A DNA stretch of 64,000 nt from Flavobacteriales bacterium UBA3364. GTDB lineage: Bacteria; Bacteroidota; Bacteroidia; Flavobacteriales_F; PHOS-HE28. This document shows, piece by piece, positions 5,598 to 33,996 of the stretch. Under the pieces are notes generated by a model. The model saw only the letters and a program-made list of their open reading frames with translations, did not search any database and was not told where the DNA came from. Location of the stretch: contig DEQO01000196.1 in NCBI GenBank assembly GCA_002360495.1, positions 5,638 to 69,637 of the forward strand, written 5' to 3'. Each line of letters opens with the position of its first letter. Within the stretch, counting starts at the first letter, position 1. The translations under genes and the position numbers were made by a program.

Positions 5598-6062
5598 ATG
5601 AACTACATGGATCTTGCATCACTTTCGGAATGGGCAGGGGTGACTGCTGCAATCGCAACAACCATTAGCATACCTGTTGCGGCATTCGCACTCCTGCAAT
5701 CACGACGACAAGCCCAGACGGACTTTGAAGACAACCTTAACGCGCAGTACAGAGCAACTATCCGCGAAATTCCAATAGATGCTCACTTGGGAAAGCCCTT
5801 GAATGAGGATTGCCTGAAAAAGAACATGCTTGACTTCTATCACTACATCGACTTGACCAACGAGCAGGTCTTCCTGAGAATGGAAGGCCGGGTAAGTACG
5901 AAGACCTGGAGAAACTGGTGCGACGGCATCAGTAACAATCTTGCGAAGCCTGGTTTTGCAGAAGCGTGGAAAGTGATCAAGGTCTGTTCCGAAAACAGCT
6001 TTAATGAATTGCGCAGACTTGAGAGCGACGGATACAAGAGCGACCCGAAGAGATGGACATGA
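5598..6062 (+). CDS. hypothetical N-terminally membrane-anchored protein
   Basis: ORF 5502..6062; the ATG at 5598 gives MNYMDLASLSEWAGVTAAIATTISIPVAAFALLQSRR (one TM helix) followed by a soluble ~120-aa domain. Lies in AT-richer DNA. No family recognised with confidence. Confidence 0.45.
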   Translation: MNYMDLASLSEWAGVTAAIATTISIPVAAFALLQSRRQAQTDFEDNLNAQYRATIREIPIDAHLGKPLNEDCLKKNMLDFYHYIDLTNEQVFLRMEGRVSTKTWRNWCDGISNNLAKPGFAEAWKVIKVCSENSFNELRRLESDGYKSDPKRWT

Positions 6063-6372
6063 TAACCGCTATTGGGAGGATTGATAGGCAGCCAATTCCC
6101 CTTCCCCATGCGCTCCATGAACGAACGGCTATCGACAGTCGAACGGACTAAATGGGGACTGGCTGCGCTTTAGATCGATGGGGATGACCCTCCCAATGGT
6201 AAAAATGTACACATACGCTGATGCCAGTTGCTCTATCGTATGAGCTACCGGTCAAATGTGCTTGCAACTCCGCGAGCTGAATTTCACCATATATCATCGA
6301 GTGATGTCACTCCCCGTTTCGCAAGGCACCAAAGCCGGACTTCGATGACGAGCTCTGAAAGGGCTCTGACAT

Positions 6373-9300
6373 TCACTCCACTACTAAGCGCCGCACGAAG
6401 TCTTCCCCTCGAACTATGTAAACGGCTGTCGGCAGACCGTTGAGATCGAACTGAACCATGCGGCCAATCCCCTTCTGAAGAATGCGTCCAGTGACATCGA
6501 GGACCTCAACAAACCCTGCGGTGGACTGTATTACCGTAATCGTACGAAGGTCTTGGTAATAGGTAATGGTGGTGGTTGCTGTGCTGTGATCGACCACGCC
6601 GGTAATGAGACCACTGCATAGGCAATCGGCGCCGATCACATCGTTGGTGGTGTTCGGGTCGCCATCGTCACAGCCGGATCCGATCTGACCGGCCACTTTC
6701 GGGCAGTCGTCCAGGGTATCCACAATACCATCACCATCGCTATCCGGCCCGATGAGCCCCTTAACGATATAGGGCGAAAGTGTGCTGCCAGCATAGCCGA
6801 AGGAACCCCCGACGATAAGTTGCCCGTCCGAATCGATAGCAAGAGCGCGGACATCCCCCGACATTCCACTGCCCAATGCAGACCAGTTGTTACCATCCCA
6901 TTTCGCAATACGCCTTGCGACCAACCCGCCTGCATAGTCAAAGTTCCCACCGACGTAGATGTCCGAGCCGTTAGCCACAATGGCATACACAAACAAGTCG
7001 ACCCCGGCACCGAGGTTGGACCAACTACTACCATCCCACTTCGCGATGCGGTTAGCGGCTACCCCACCTGCGGTGGTAAAGCCCCCCGTGACATAGAGGT
7101 CAGTTCCACTCACAGCCAATTCCCCAATGGAATTATTGGTACCGACACCAAGGGCGGACCAACTGGTGCCATCCCATTTGGCAATGTTGTTTACAGGAAG
7201 CCCACCGGCCGAGACAAAGAAGCCTCCAACATATAGATCCGAGCCAATAACAGCCATGCCGCCTACACCCCCCCCAAAAGTTGAACTAAAACCCAATCCT
7301 GAACCCAATGCTGACCAACTGCTACCATCCCATTTCGCGATGTTATTGACAGTTACACCGTCCATAGAAGCAAAGTTTCCACATGCATAGAGATCTGTTC
7401 CTATTACGACCAATGCATTTACCGACCCCCCATAATCCGTTCCTGTCCCCAATGCCGACCAACTATTTCCATCCCACTTTGCGATGCCGTTGCAAGGAAG
7501 CCCACCTGCCGTGGTGAAGTAGCCTCCAGCATAGAGGTCCGTGCCGATCACAGCCATTGCTCTGACGCTACAGCCGCCCCAGCCGGTCATTCCGGAGCCT
7601 AACGCCGACCAGCTGCTTCCGTTCCACATCGCAATGTGCTTTGCTGATAACCCGCCCGCTGTTGTGAATAAGCCACCTGCATAGAGAATCGATCCACTGA
7701 CCGTAATCGATTCAATAGCATCATCAATGCCAGTGCCAAGGACCGACCAATTGCTGCCATCCAGTTTCGCGATGTTTTCCGCAACACCACCTCCTAATAG
7801 TGTGAAAGGCCCACCCCCCCCGGCAAAAAAATCTGTACTTGACCATGCCAGTGTATAAACGGTGGGATTCGAGCCAGTACCCACGGGCGACCAGCCTATG
7901 CCATCCCATCTGGAAATGCTATTCGCAACACCACCCGACGGATAGAAATCACCACCAACATAGAGATCCGTTCCGCGCATCGCCAGCGCGTAAACAATAT
8001 AATTCGTCCCCTCGCCCAGTGCTGACCAGCTACTGCCGTTCCATTTCGCAATGTTGTTCGCCGCGATCCCTCCGGCCGTGGTGAAATTCCCACCTGCGTA
8101 AACATCCGTTCCGCTAACCACTATGTCGTTGACCACCACATTATTCAGGCTACCAACACCCACACCCAAAGGCGTCCAAGTGCTTCCATTCCATTTGGCA
8201 ATATGGTTGACCAGGTTTCCTCCGGCCGTTGTGAAACTGCCACCTACGTATACGTTAGGCCCATCCACAGCAATCGCCGCTACTGGATCGTTTACACCGC
8301 TGCCCAAAGCCGACCAGGTACTACCGTTCCATTTGGCCACGTTGTTCGCGGCAAACCCACCTGCATTAGTAAACCGCCCACCGACATAAAGATCCGAACC
8401 ACTTACCGCCAACGCAGATACGTTATTGGTGATCAATTCGTTGAGTCCGGAGCCCAACGCCGACCAGTTGCTTCCATCCCATTTGGCGATGTAATTCGAC
8501 AACACGCCACCAGCAGAGGTAAAACGACCGCCAGCATATATGTCATTACCACTATGGGCTAAAGCGAGGACCTCATCATTCGTCCCATCGCCAACGGCGG
8601 ACCAAGTGCTACCATCCCATTTCGCAATGTTGTTCGCAGCGACGGTGCCTGCGATAGAGAACCAACCCCCAACATACAAATCGTCGTTCTGATCCACAAT
8701 GGCAGCCTTCACCCAGCCACTAGTACCAGGAAGGCCTGGATTCAAGCTCACCCAGTTGGCATCGCTGAAGGTGGGATCGATACGCACCGGATAGACGGCC
8801 TCTTCATCGGCAACGCGCATGACCAAGCATGAAGGGAAGCGTACATCCAAAGAGGCGACGAGCTCTTGACCCATTGCATCCGTCACGCGCACCCTATTGT
8901 AGACAAGCTTGCGACCTGTCTCACCCATTGTGAGCAATACGCCATCGGCAGCCGCTGCTGCTTGTGCACCGCACAGCTCCAGTTCAACCATCAGATCACC
9001 TGCACCCGATGGGCGTTCTGCGATGATGAAGTCCTGTCTCACGCCATCCGCACTGACCGAGTATTCCTCCACCAGACCCGTGCGCCCGAATGTGACCAGT
9101 TTCTCGTCCACCACAACGGTGCCCGAGGTGGGCAGAGCCACGATAGACCCAGACCGTCCGAATGCACTTGATCTCAATTGCAGCGTATCACCTTTTCCAG
9201 AAGTGGATATCAACGTAAGGCCATCCTGGCTCACCGTTCCCGCCAACTTCTGGAAGCCTGCGCGCAAGAATGCCCCTGTTTGGCTAGGGCTGATGCCGAT

Positions 9301-21184: not shown

Positions 21185-21192
<8 letters not shown>

Positions 21193-22776
21193 CGTTTGCC
21201 TCTGGCGCCGCGTTCATCGGACGGATTATTGACTCGATGAAGACCTTCTCTGCTTCAGTGATTCCGTACTTCTTGTAGAGCTCGGCGTCGGTCCAGTCTC
21301 GATCCCAAGTTTGCTGTGGCACCCAGGTATATGTGGACTTGTTTGCGTCTTGCGTGATCTTCCGAAGTGAGATGATGAAGCGGGCAAAGCGGGTCCGTAG
21401 GTATGACTGCACACTCTTGGCAGCCCTCTCACTGTCCACAAAGAAGAAGAGATAGGTCTGTGTGCAGACTGAAGGAGGTGCGGCAATCAGTGAAGGGCCA
21501 AGCACCATGTCCACACCGCTTTTCTCCCTCTCCCTTCCTGAACCCGTTTTCGGCACTAAGACCTTCCACTTGTCTATCAAATGTTGACTCTTCGGAACCT
21601 CTGAGCGCTTCATCCAACCAACTTGGCGCTTGGTCTTGTCGTTGTAGTACAGCGCTATGTCATTCTTCCCTGCGGTCGGTCGGTGGCCATCGAAGTTTGA
21701 AGTCATGCCGAATTCCTTGTCAGCGGATAGAAGTTCCGTCAATGACGGCTCCTTCTTGGAGAGCACTTTGTTCAGGATAGCGAGTCCACGGACATCCCGC
21801 ACTAGAACGTCGAACTCGTCAAGCCACCGTTGATGTGGACCGTAGGTCTGACCGTCACGCACCAGTGTCGTCGCGCACTCACCATTGTGATGAGCATCCC
21901 ATAGGAAGTAGCAAATGCCTCCGTTAATCCCGACAGAAGGAAAAAGCTCCGCTGCATTCAGATAGTCCACTAACGCAGCCATTCGGCGGTCACTCAACAT
22001 CGTTTTACGGAATGCGTCAAGGCCCAGCCCTCCAGCCATCCAGCGTGACGGGATGATCATGGACAGAAATCGTGGTTCAAGCTTCTTTGCTTGTTCAACG
22101 AAGTGCTGATAGATCGGCACGTCGCGCGTTCCACCATCCGCTCCTAGCTGGTAGGGCGGGTTACCGATGATCACGTCGAATTGCATGTTCTTTCCAAAGA
22201 TTTCGGTTATCCGAGCCTTGATGTCTTTCGTGTGTATGAGCGCGTAGGCGTGGGTCTCGTACCCTTCGCCCCGGTCCAGCGCATTTTGGCTTGCCCCGCA
22301 GTAGGTACACTTCTCATCCTTCCACGTATGCTCCATCCGCTCGAACCAGATATTGCCCGCATCGGTGGCGAAGCTGCTGCCGATGGAGTGCGCGCCCTTG
22401 GCGTGCTTGGAGCAATACACGCTGCGCCGTGCCAGCAAGCTGGTGAGGTGCGTGATGCCGATGCCGAAGACCTGCTTGGTGAGGATGTGGTCCACGCGGG
22501 TGCGCAGGTCGGGTATCTGGTCCTTCAGGCCTTCGGTAAGGCGGCTGGTGATCTCGCGCAGGAAGACCCCGCTCTTGGTGCAGGGGTCAAGAAAGGTCAC
22601 GGTGGGGTCCGCCCATATGTTGGCTCCTTTGTTGTTGGCAGCCCAAGCTTCGGCCAGCGTGTCCAGCATGCGGTTCGCGAAGTCCGGCGGTGTGAAGACC
22701 TCATCGTTGCTGAGGTTTGCGATACAGGTGAGCACATCGGGGTTGCGCCCGCGCAGGGTGAAGCTGGCTTGGGTGC

Positions 22777-22780
<4 letters not shown>
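21185..22780 (-). CDS. gamma-class N6-adenine DNA methyltransferase (Eco57I-type) with C-terminal specificity region
   Basis: VFTPPDFANRMLD (motif X), FLDPCTKSGVFLREI (motif I), FDVIIGNPPYQLGADGG (motif IV), plus about 300 aa of C-terminal TRD-like sequence. Confidence 0.8.
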
Positions 22781-23430
<650 letters not shown>

Positions 23431-32405: not shown

Positions 32406-32666
32406 ATGACCAAGTGTAAGATCTGCCGTGTCCTGGGCAGGAACATCTATGCGCAGCGCGTGGCCTATCGATTCACCCAGGAGTATCTCGCCCATGAAGC
32501 AGGCATCAGCCAGGGCACCTTCTGCAAGGTCGAGAAGGGCGAGATCGAATTACGGGTCGAAGCTGCTCTCCGGATCGCCCGGCTCCTCGGTCGCACGATC
32601 GAGGAGTTGAGTTCTCCGCAGATGGTGGTGAAGTCACTTGAGGATCGGATGCGCAGGGCAGGATAG
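32406..32666 (+). CDS. XRE-family helix-turn-helix regulator
   Basis: ATG at 32406 (the ORF-track start at 32388 is TTG). GRNIYAQRVAYRFTQEYLAHEAGISQGTFCKVEKGEIELRVEAALRIARLLG is a classic HTH_3 pattern. Confidence 0.75.
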   Translation: MTKCKICRVLGRNIYAQRVAYRFTQEYLAHEAGISQGTFCKVEKGEIELRVEAALRIARLLGRTIEELSSPQMVVKSLEDRMRRAG

Positions 32667-32719
32667 GCGACGCATGCCGCCGTGCGGATCGTGGTTGGGT
32701 GGGTCTTCTACCGGCCTGC

Positions 32720-33159
32720 GAGGCAGCTTCGATCGATATAGGCGGCACCTTCGATCGAACGTGGAGTCAACTTCGATCGACATGGGAGGCACCTTCGATC
32801 GAATGTGGAGGCAGCTTCGATCGACATACGAGGCACATCCGATCGAATGTGGAGTCAGCTTCGATCGCCATAAGAGGCACATCCGATCGAATGTGGAGTC
32901 AGCTTCGATCGACATAGGAGGCACATCCGATCGAATGTGGAGGCAGCTTCGATCGACATAGGCGGCACTTTCGATCGAATGCGGAGGCAGCTTCGATCGA
33001 CATAGGAGGCACATCAGATCGAACGTGGAGTCAACTTCGATCGACATAAGAGGCACCTTTGATCGAATGTGGAAGCACCTTCGATCGGCATAGGCGGCAC
33101 ATCCGATCGAATGCGGAAGCAGCTTCGATCGAAATGGGAGGCACATCCGATCGAACGTG
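32720..33159. repeat. tandem array: 20 x 22-bp units (10 x 44-bp alternating A/B units), each with a CGATCG core
   Basis: A type: GAGGCAGCTTCGATCGACATAG. B type: GAGGCACATCCGATCGAATGTG. In B units, CACAT...ATGTG flank the core as an imperfect 18-bp palindrome. Units were parsed by hand from 32720 to 33159 with few substitutions. Confidence 0.9.
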
Positions 33160-33375
33160 GAGGCCTGCCCGTGCCGATATGCGGTACGGAATAAACTATT
33201 CCGCCGGGAATGGAACACGTTGTATCCCTTGCCCACGGCGGTGTTCCGGGCACTTCGATCATTCCGTGCGGCATATCGGGAGCCGTTCGGAAACCCTCGA
33301 TCCGGCGGCCCGTTGCACACCTCGGATCACCAAAAAACGGTACCCATCCGGTGGCCGGATCCGCAACCGGAAAAC

Positions 33376-33996
33376 ATGAAGTCCAAGGTAAAGTTGTCGT
33401 TGTATCTGTTGAATCCCGCCAAACGGCTGATGTTGCTCCGCAACGTGATCGGCAAGATGTCCGGGAACCCCCACTTCCCCACGCCGCCGGTGACGATGGT
33501 CGCCGCCACGGCGCTGGCGGACGAACTGGACACCGCCATCCAGGAGGCCACCCATGGCAGCAAAGCCGCGAAGGCGGTGCGGAACGCCTTGTCCCGCCAG
33601 TGCGCGGACATGCTGAACGTGCTGGCGGACTACCAGCGCATGGTGAGCAATGGGGACGAGGTGATGCTGAGCTCCGGAGGCTTCGAGATGGCGAAGAAGC
33701 GGGAGCTCGTGGGCATCCCGGGAGCGCCCCAGAAGCTGCAGGTCCGCTTCACCAATGCGAAGGGCCAGCTGGACCTGCGCTGGCAGCCGGTGCGCGGCGC
33801 ACACGGCTACCAGGTGTGGATGACGGCGATGGACCCCACCGTGGAAGCCCACTGGGAGGCCATTGGGTACACCACCCGGGTGAGCCACCTGGTGGATGAG
33901 CTGGAGAGCTTCAAGGCCCATTGGTTCTGCGTAAGCGCCATCGGCGTGGCCGGCGAAGGCCTGCAGAGCGATCCTGCGATGGGCCGCGCAGCCTGA
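33376..33996 (+). CDS. hypothetical protein with C-terminal fibronectin type III-like domain
   Basis: ATG at 33376 (MKSKVKLSLYLLNPAKR). The C-terminal PQKLQVRFTNAKGQLDLRWQPVRGAHGYQVWMT...WFCVSAIGVAGEG is an Fn3-like pattern. Confidence 0.6.
   Translation: MKSKVKLSLYLLNPAKRLMLLRNVIGKMSGNPHFPTPPVTMVAATALADELDTAIQEATHGSKAAKAVRNALSRQCADMLNVLADYQRMVSNGDEVMLSSGGFEMAKKRELVGIPGAPQKLQVRFTNAKGQLDLRWQPVRGAHGYQVWMTAMDPTVEAHWEAIGYTTRVSHLVDELESFKAHWFCVSAIGVAGEGLQSDPAMGRAA

Follow-up and report, generated by a model that had tools for sequence, protein, structure and literature searches.

The 64,000-nucleotide stretch of the genome of Flavobacteriales bacterium UBA3364 analysed here (GenBank assembly GCA_002360495.1, contig DEQO01000196.1; hereafter the window) carries a tandem array of 22-bp units between a gene for a small XRE-family regulator and a gene for a 206-aa protein with an FN3 domain. 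By sequence comparison, the XRE gene, the array and the FN3 gene form a conserved three-part unit across uncultured Flavobacteriales, a module of which no description was found in the curated families, annotated records or literature searched. We predict that the array is a helically phased, multi-site protein-binding platform that works at the level of DNA in the upstream control region of the FN3 gene, and we give this reading a probability of about 0.4. An initial annotation, made from the letters of the window alone, had likened the array to sets of sites for DNA-binding proteins; in that general form the proposal stays the best reading, the 22-bp phase being kept even in arrays whose units have decayed. 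Coordinates of all features are given in Table 1.

Architecture of the array

Tandem Repeats Finder describes the 445-bp array by a period of 44 bp with 10.1 copies, 86% matches, 0% indels and a score of 638, and also detects a higher-order period of 132 bp with 88% matches. In a 22-bp register, identity is about 65% between adjacent units and 87-90% between units two apart. Read directly, the array consists of 20 full units (32720-33159) followed by the partial unit GAGGC, and the units abut with no spacers between them. Both approaches confirm the 20 phased units, the alternation of types A and B and the true period of 44 bp proposed at the outset. Across the 20 units, G1, C5, A6, T9 and the GATCG at 12-16 are fixed, and conservation clusters in two patches about 10 bp apart, at positions 3-6 and 12-16. 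GATC had been reported from every unit, and it is present in 20 of 20; the longer CGATCG, reported with it, occurs in 18 of 20, as unit 14 has AGATCG and unit 16 TGATCG. The B units are palindromic at 16 of 18 positions (CACATCCGATCGAATGTG), in agreement with the imperfect 18-bp palindromes first described, and four units of the array hold a perfect TTCGATCGAA. When at most one mismatch is allowed, the array contains 17 occurrences of TTCGATCGAA and the other 63.5 kb a single one, where 1.9 are expected; for GGCA-N5-GATCG the counts are 14 in the array and one elsewhere in the window. The units carry a TCGATCGA core with an inverted repeat, a putative site of protein binding. The array is bracketed by two copies of the heptamer GGCCTGC, which may be a trace of its origin or expansion. 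Over the whole window, the observed/expected ratios of tetranucleotides are 2.0 for GATC, 0.13 for CTAG, 0.19 for TTAA and 0.38 for TATA.

The array is a single-copy element and its length does not appear to be a product of assembly, a doubt that had been raised. Two assemblies of the source sample, an activated-sludge metagenome, are identical throughout the array (ENA k127 and the NCBI metagenome-assembled genome (MAG) GCA_035438145.1); the Logan assembly contig breaks inside it, at 32782 in unit 3. Short Logan pieces tile the array with 0 mismatches at a depth of 7-18x, compared with 11-16x in the flanks. There is no sign of gross collapse of the array nor of many extra copies elsewhere in the genome. 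It is not a dispersed satellite either, given a single near-match outside it in 64 kb and a single-copy k-mer depth. A strain about 95% identical, from a freshwater metagenome, also has the XRE gene, both ends of the array and the downstream gene.

Many short contigs of homologous loci start within the array, consistent with assembly breaks there, and the array accounts for the frequent contig breaks at this locus in these genomes. In addition, gene callers put false open reading frames (ORFs) across it. A 228-aa ORF on the minus strand (32634-33320) spans the whole array and is annotated as a gene by ENA (L121), and a comparable 225-aa ORF runs through the array of locus L129 on the plus strand. 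A protein-coding role was rejected, as neither unit sequence nor strand is kept, several superperiods are not divisible by 3 and no RNA was detected. Both ORFs are stop-free artefacts of the repeat, not genes.

Conservation of period and position

The FN3 protein has 89 homologues at 41-64% identity, nearly all of 206-207 aa. The DNA around members of this family was taken from genomes and metagenomes wherever enough upstream sequence was available. Periodicity was expressed as the mean z of the autocorrelation at lags 22, 44, 66 and 88, with 400 control windows from the same loci as the null. It lies between 3.9 and 12.5 in 26 of 27 distinct loci and is 8.6 in the window array, against a null mean of -0.09 and a null maximum of 1.14; the sole exception, L166, has an array with a period of 43. 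An array was present at every FN3-family locus for which the upstream DNA sufficed; the homologous arrays comprise 4-24 units, with periods of 22 or superperiods of 44, 66, 88, 110 or 132, and in most loci they end about 210-290 bp before the ATG of the FN3 gene.

The phase also outlasts the homogeneity of the units. Loci L169 and L171 have no repeat visible to Tandem Repeats Finder, yet both are still 22-bp periodic: the top six of 140 autocorrelation lags in L171 are 132, 110, 66, 22, 88 and 44, all multiples of 22, and the top three of 70 in L169 are 66, 22 and 44. These decayed arrays retain particular positions, CGAAGG in L171 and A.GGC..TAT in L169. On these comparisons, selection appears to keep the 22-bp phase, more than one unit, a place ahead of the FN3 promoter and, within each unit, a few anchor bases, and to leave the strand, most of the unit sequence, palindromy and GATC free to change.

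Turnover of unit sequence and orientation

The sequence of the unit differs from locus to locus, for example GGTCGTGTGTGGAGGCAACTAT in L129, CCGCACATTAGGCAGACTGTGC in L132, CCTCCAAGGCGATCGTCGTTGA in L149 and GGGTACTCACCCCGTAGTGATC in L173. Array similarity drops to noise below about 76% FN3 identity (Mantel p = 0.018), and L128 and L129 encode identical FN3 proteins yet share 32 of 44 array consensus positions. Many arrays share a short purine-rich anchor, RGGCA (often GAGGCAAC), which is on the plus strand in seven of them (the window, L128, L129, L134, L137, L139 and L141) and on the minus strand in seven or eight, including L135, L136, L138, L140, L142, L149 and L165. Reverse-complement matches between the two subgroups reach 28 of 44 positions, against a 99th percentile of 22, so to judge by these matches the array has evidently flipped with respect to the genes around it in the course of evolution. 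Dyad symmetry is wanting in many homologous arrays, palindromy not being general to the units, and about half of the homologous arrays are without any GATC. The methylation-sensitive switch at GATC that had been suggested was rejected on the latter count; GATC is over-represented throughout the window anyway (observed/expected 2.0).

Tandem arrays with a GATCG core and a 22-bp period are also found outside this family: GATCG repeated four times at 22-bp spacing marks at least 120 arrays in genome contigs of many phyla. Among the matches listed, none resembles the window unit or adjoins an FN3-family gene, and one is near an XRE-like ORF. The matches listed also include a multi-copy family with A/B alternation in Actinomyces massiliensis and A. 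israelii. Several loci, one of them in a Prevotella genome, have ACTGAGGCAGGATCGTGACACA, Actinomycetota MAGs have GAAACTCTCGGATCGTCGTACC, and one Cyclobacteriaceae genome has 16 units. A family-specific DNA pattern gave 0 matches in metagenome contigs, and three CGATCGA cores at 22-bp spacing were met with in viral contigs in 4 short unrelated arrays.

Palindromes, promoter motif and leader of the FN3 gene

Three operator-like palindromes of the ATTCCGnnCGGAAT type, each of 14 bp, lie between the array and the FN3 gene. The pattern ATTCCGNNCGGVAT, with at most one mismatch, has three sites in 64 kb, all of them at 33179-33274, and O2 is 63 bp from O1b, centre to centre. At homologous positions in other loci there are two or three copies of a 14-bp palindrome that is specific to the locus (ATGCC-N4-GGCAT, AACCC-N4-GGGTT, CCATGCG...CGCATGG). 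As candidates for the dyad sites of 14-18 bp that, in XRE/Cro-type operator sets, lie near the promoter and vary with the regulator, these palindromes qualify and the array units do not; the O palindromes are likely to be the operators of the XRE protein.

An anchored alignment of 23 loci points to a promoter motif like those of extracytoplasmic function (ECF) sigma factors. Across the loci it reads GAAC(C)-N15-16-CGTTGCA or GGGCy-N15-16-CGTwmCA, and the type of -35 element (GAAC or GGGC) switches in step with that of the -10 element (CGTTGCA or CGTwmCA), which suggests two cognate sigma specificities. A sigma-54 reading of CGTTGCA was rejected, the alignments having no GG at -24/-25, and so were the array units as tandem ECF promoters, their spacing being unfit. 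Scans for sigma-70 promoters and intrinsic terminators, which are ill-suited to Bacteroidota, found none. The 5' leader that follows may fold into a pseudoknot. Its helices covary over 17 loci, with 84% of cells paired compared with 69% in shuffles (0 of 500 as high) and 26 double-sided changes compared with 9.5; slid controls gave 23-60%. The interleaved pair ends 6 nt before the FN3 ATG, and four loci have a short form with one helix.

Table 1. Features of the XRE-array-FN3 module, in window coordinates
Feature	Position	Strand	Basis or remark
XRE/HTH_3 regulator gene, 86 aa	32406..32666	+	Pfam HTH_3, E 4.3e-8
GGCCTGC direct repeat, left copy	32713..32719	+	read directly
22-bp repeat array, 20.2 units alternating A/B	32720..33164	n/a	Tandem Repeats Finder and direct reading
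GGCCTGC direct repeat, right copy, overlapping the last partial unit	33162..33168	+	read directly
Operator-like palindrome O1a, ATGCGGTACGGAAT	33179..33192	n/a	one arm of inverted repeat I22
Operator-like palindrome O1b, ATTCCGCCGGGAAT	33198..33211	n/a	motif search and locus comparison
Operator-like palindrome O2, ATTCCGTGCGGCAT	33261..33274	n/a	just upstream of -35-like element
ECF-sigma-like promoter motif, GGAAAC-N16-CGTTGCA	33289..33317	+	inferred, anchored alignment of 23 loci
5' leader, possible pseudoknot	33324..33370	+	GGATC 33324-33328 with GATCC 33358-33362; CCGGT 33348-33352 with ACCGG 33366-33370
Gene for conserved 206-aa protein	33376..33996	+	three-helix bundle (N-terminal) and FN3 domain (C-terminal)

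The array as a proposed binding platform

In the mechanism that we propose, the array would be the distal part of a conserved control region upstream of the FN3 gene and would act as DNA, not as RNA. One short recognition motif would recur every 22 bp, about two helical turns, so that all copies would lie on one face of the helix; in the window these motifs would be GGCA and GATCG. A DNA-binding protein would load cooperatively on them, and this loading would set or buffer the activity of the ECF-type promoter, which lies some 150 bp beyond the array. The XRE protein would act more probably through the three palindromes between array and promoter. Candidate binders of the array itself are the XRE protein in a second binding mode, the FN3 protein and a host factor. 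A phase that is kept while strand, sequence, palindromy and GATC vary fits such a DNA-level platform for cooperative binding.

Several observations weigh against this proposal. The O half-sites match their own array no better than they match the arrays of other loci (p = 0.68); they were rejected as its building block, and array and palindromes come out as separate elements. XRE class, O half-sites and array units do not co-vary, and by sequence comparison the class of the XRE does not track the type of the array. An RGGCA-like anchor is missing in some arrays, for example those of L173 (GGGTACTCACCCCGTAGTGATC) and L171 (CGAAGGA). The conservation of the period could come partly from descent and unequal crossing-over, not from helical phasing. 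Finally, the RNA evidence presented below comes from another species than that of the window.

A bolder version, which we regard as doubtful, would make the array a new, locus-bound 'regulatory satellite'. Selection would act on the 22-bp phase and the anchor bases and the remainder would be under concerted evolution, even inverting, while the array would seed a nucleoprotein complex, possibly together with abundant FN3 protein, that sets FN3 expression. If this were true, unit sequence and copy number might be a strain-specific rheostat or an insulator against cross-talk between paralogous modules.

The XRE gene and its protein as candidate binder

The initial annotation named the XRE protein as the obvious binder of the array, and correctly placed the end of its gene 53 nt before it (stop at 32666, unit 1 at 32720). 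Under that proposal, XRE dimers would bind each 22-bp unit on CGATCG-centred palindromes, making the array an operator, titration or iteron-like array. We consider this rather unlikely. In its favour, 14 of the 18 distinct lineages for which enough DNA was available have an XRE-like ORF immediately before the array and on the same strand, XREs that are nearly identical accompany similar unit cores (GGTCGTGTG in L128 and L129, GGCGATCGTC in L130 and L149), the window and L166 have a common XRE class and a CGATCGA core, and XRE-family proteins such as SinR are able to bind direct repeats. Against it, the array persists with no adjacent XRE in four lineages (L138, L154, L158/L159 and L165). L165, a close relative of L149, has lost the XRE gene and carries a transposase of the IS256 (mutator-type) family in its place (5800-7100), with a 44-bp array of 10.6 copies and the FN3 gene intact. 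The distance of the array is held to the FN3 gene, not to the XRE gene, whose stop lies 4-479 bp before the array start across loci. The XREs, at 18-41% identity to that of the window, form at least three sequence classes that are poorly matched to the units: one recognition helix, QSRLSK/S, accompanies three unrelated unit families (L128, L130 and L136), and homologous CAAGGCGATCG units are paired with a class-1 XRE in L149 and a class-3 XRE in L166. Palindromes, moreover, are not general to the units, and better XRE-type operators lie downstream. The linkage of array and XRE gene holds as a frequent neighbourhood, and not as an anchoring of the array to that gene; the claim that its product is the obvious binder was not upheld.

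Used as sole query, the window XRE protein has no k-mer-detectable homologues, and its relatives were found with an alignment of 12 XREs. The XRE nearest to it in sequence (42% identity) belongs to a second module of the same MAG, GCA_035438145.1, on a different contig. This module, L171 (positions 6001-6765, DAORHW010000065.1), consists of that paralogous XRE gene, the decayed 22-bp-periodic array described above and a leader about 70% identical to that of the window; it adjoins hsdR and motA/ompA-like (Zorya-like) genes, and the contig stops before the expected FN3 gene. Its leader half-sites are CGAAT, compared with GGAAT/GGCAT in the window, and the recognition helix of its XRE differs too. 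Such a joint change between paralogous modules is the pairing expected if the XRE reads the palindromes.

In an alignment of XREs from these modules (L139, L141, L142, L166, L167 and L169), many have a short, alternating hydrophobic strand after the helix-turn-helix (ITITIT, ITITF, FTLVV, VNVTF), followed by a proline-rich tail; the strand may serve oligomerisation. Locus L166 has three perfect copies of an unrelated 61-bp repeat between its XRE gene and its 43-bp-period array (7211-7394), and part of the XRE 3' end, with downstream sequence, is duplicated after these repeats.

Structural and neutral explanations

It is unlikely that the array is sequence-nonspecific structural DNA, whether in the form of phased curvature, a cruciform or supercoil sink, or an insulator between the island with the XRE gene on one side and the strongly transcribed FN3 gene on the other. 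Such an element would explain why the period is kept without the sequence and why orientation is irrelevant, and the array does lie upstream of a gene well expressed relative to its neighbours. Strong self-complementarity is seen in L145 (z -3), L137 (-2.3) and L136 (-2.5). Over all arrays, the excess compared with shuffled-unit tandems is nonetheless weak, with a mean z of -0.86 and -0.42, and the window array shows none (-0.2 and -0.8); a hairpin or cruciform was rejected on these grounds. The specific positions kept in the decayed arrays of L171 and L169 resemble a recognition motif.

A functionless tandem repeat, maintained through slippage and unequal crossing-over where the island border is prone to recombination, is improbable. 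Very fast turnover, variable copy number and frequent assembly breaks are what it would lead one to see, and 22-bp GATCG-phased tandems do occur in many unrelated genomes. The array, however, has the same position in all 27 distinct lineages over a range of 41-100% FN3 identity, and its periodicity persists without detectable homogeneity of the units. Bacterial deletion bias, furthermore, is expected to remove a neutral repeat of 100-530 bp.

Transcription

No RNA run holding the window's own sequence was found, and transcription was followed in Logan contigs of another species, represented by L147 (the same species as L132, with 13.8 units); such contigs show presence, not absence. In eight of eight activated-sludge metatranscriptomes, the L147 contigs cover the FN3 ORF only, at a depth of 6-19x, with 5' ends that range from 71 nt before the ORF to 39 nt within it and 3' ends about 10-60 nt past the stop codon. 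Relative to the promoter motif, the 5' ends fall between 6 nt before and about 100 nt after the homologous CGT. A start site is predicted about 8-10 nt after CGTTGCA; one contig (run X7) begins 5-6 nt upstream of that motif, which makes the assignment of the start site provisional. Two low-depth runs of the L154 lineage also gave FN3 fragments only. The array, the XRE gene and the unique spacers have no RNA contigs in the eight L147 metatranscriptomes. It is unlikely that the array gives rise to an abundant RNA or that a long leader traverses it.

These data bear on the possibility that the array works as RNA, either through tandem hairpins that stabilise or terminate the XRE 3' end or as a repeat RNA like those of type III toxin-antitoxin systems, and we regard it as very improbable. 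Tandem repeats directly upstream of a small protein gene are the arrangement of toxIN, and the window array folds at z -3.9 on the plus strand and -6.8 on the minus strand when compared with whole-sequence shuffles. Compared with shuffled-unit tandems, the folding is no better in most arrays, and the orientation of the array flips. The FN3 gene has an apparent promoter motif of its own, and the protein consists of an FN3 domain and a helical bundle, with no other fold matched in the searches run. Rfam 15 gave 0 matches at the gathering score in the whole window, where a tRNA scan was also empty, and no intrinsic terminator was seen in the scan noted above. The structured repeat RNA offered as an alternative at the outset is not supported.

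Comparison with known repeat systems

Phased direct repeats of 22 bp are the classical geometry of iterons (R6K, F, P1), and ten copies of 44 bp resemble the F-plasmid centromere sopC (43 bp, 12 copies). Like plasmid iterons (seven copies of 22 bp in the R6K gamma origin; about 22 bp in F, P1 and RK2), the array has a 22-bp phase that puts sites on one helical face, and a unit sequence that is element-specific and diverges fast between relatives. Unlike them, it is chromosomal, linked to a gene that is not a Rep gene, unfixed in orientation and up to 24 units long. With repeat centromeres such as sopC, parC of R1 and parH of TP228 it has in common a unit of 43-44 bp in 10-12 copies, inverted-repeat cores and an adjoining gene for a small DNA-binding protein; such centromeres may double as operators. 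In contrast to them, its replicon needs no partition and the palindromic core is limited to the window and a few loci and is not family-wide. No parA/parM/tubZ NTPase and no parB/parR/parG gene was found in the window module or in about 20 homologous contexts.

Modules of the Cro/CI type likewise combine a small HTH_3 protein with multiple 14-bp palindromes upstream of the target promoter motif, which differ between paralogous modules; what sets the present module apart is a phased array of 100-530 bp between regulator and operators, with the palindromes separate from the array. In type III toxin-antitoxin systems (toxIN, cptIN, tenpIN), a tandem array also immediately precedes the gene for a small protein, and such loci are often found in defence islands. 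Their repeats are of 34-45 nt in 2-5.5 copies, abundantly transcribed and processed by an RNase of the ToxN fold, whereas here no array RNA was found (in the homologous locus), the orientation is variable, the downstream gene has an apparent promoter of its own and the protein is a helical bundle with an FN3 domain. Repetitive extragenic palindromes and bacterial interspersed mosaic elements (REP/BIME) are clustered, alternating, imperfect and intergenic palindromes too, and can bind proteins and affect supercoiling. They occur dispersed, a genome having tens to hundreds of copies, while the array unit is found at one locus only and palindromes are absent from many of the homologous arrays. 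Clustered regularly interspaced short palindromic repeats (CRISPR) were rejected, the units abutting without spacers and no cas families appearing in the scans. Membership in the iterons, centromeres, CRISPR, REP/BIME or type III systems fails in each case on at least one defining feature tested.

That the array is the iteron set of a replication origin, or a sopC- or parC-like centromere, of an integrated mobile element, as the initial annotation had entertained, is highly improbable: scans show no Rep, ParA, ParB or integrase gene in the module or island (for the island, no Rep family by Pfam, NCBIfam or PADLOC), core chromosomal genes (dnaG, ribA, queA) lie on either side, GC content is high (0.61-0.62 across 32-34 kb), no AT-rich stretch adjoins the array and no DnaA box was noted, although no formal DnaA-box search was made, the FN3 protein has no relatives in 72,556 plasmids, 50,697 phages or IMG/VR (tblastn and scans), and the module occupies different chromosomal sites in many genomes.

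Phased tandem arrays of binding sites are known mainly from plasmid origins and centromeres. Here an iteron- or centromere-like geometry is conserved on the chromosome next to one gene family throughout a clade of uncultured, wastewater-abundant Flavobacteriales. The partner FN3 protein belongs to no known family and its gene is clearly expressed in situ. The module lends itself to studying how a bacterial promoter may be regulated by periodic DNA arrays and which role the FN3 protein has.

The FN3 protein

An AlphaFold2 model of the FN3 protein (predicted local distance difference test score, pLDDT, 90) has an N-terminal three-helix bundle and a C-terminal FN3 domain. Foldseek searches with the model returned matches to the FN3 domain only, and no endoribonuclease fold of the ToxN/AbiQ type was found in them. 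The protein matches no Pfam, NCBIfam or PADLOC model. Its C-terminus has an invariant AA and mostly ends in ...GRAA, an ending that recalls an ssrA-like degradation tag. The family also has a conserved GS+xS+xxR loop.

Genomic context

Pfam, NCBIfam and PADLOC scans place a defence island at 5.5-32.3 kb of the window. It encodes a 1622-aa DEAD and UvrD helicase fusion that matches the DpdF and GajB models, GmrSD and DUF4238 proteins, a type IIG-like enzyme with T5orf172 and ResIII domains, a methylase split into two ORFs with a 4-nt overlap (21185-22780 and 22777-23430), two TPR proteins of about 930 aa, a WYL protein, and 543-aa and 103-aa proteins of no known function. The flanks are housekeeping genes, ribA on the left and dnaG, polyprenyl synthase, rlmN, ispD, queA and truB on the right. 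The array had been placed exactly at the composition boundary of the island; the GC content, at 0.53-0.62 over 5-33 kb and 0.65-0.70 over 34-38 kb, changes in a gradual step, and it is the whole conserved XRE-array-FN3 unit, not the array alone, that forms the right border of this variable defence island. Other modules are found beside restriction-modification or defence genes in L129, L130, L166, L171 and L173, and those of L167 and L169 are not. Among the window proteins there are also type IX secretion system (T9SS) CHU_C and MORN_2 domains.

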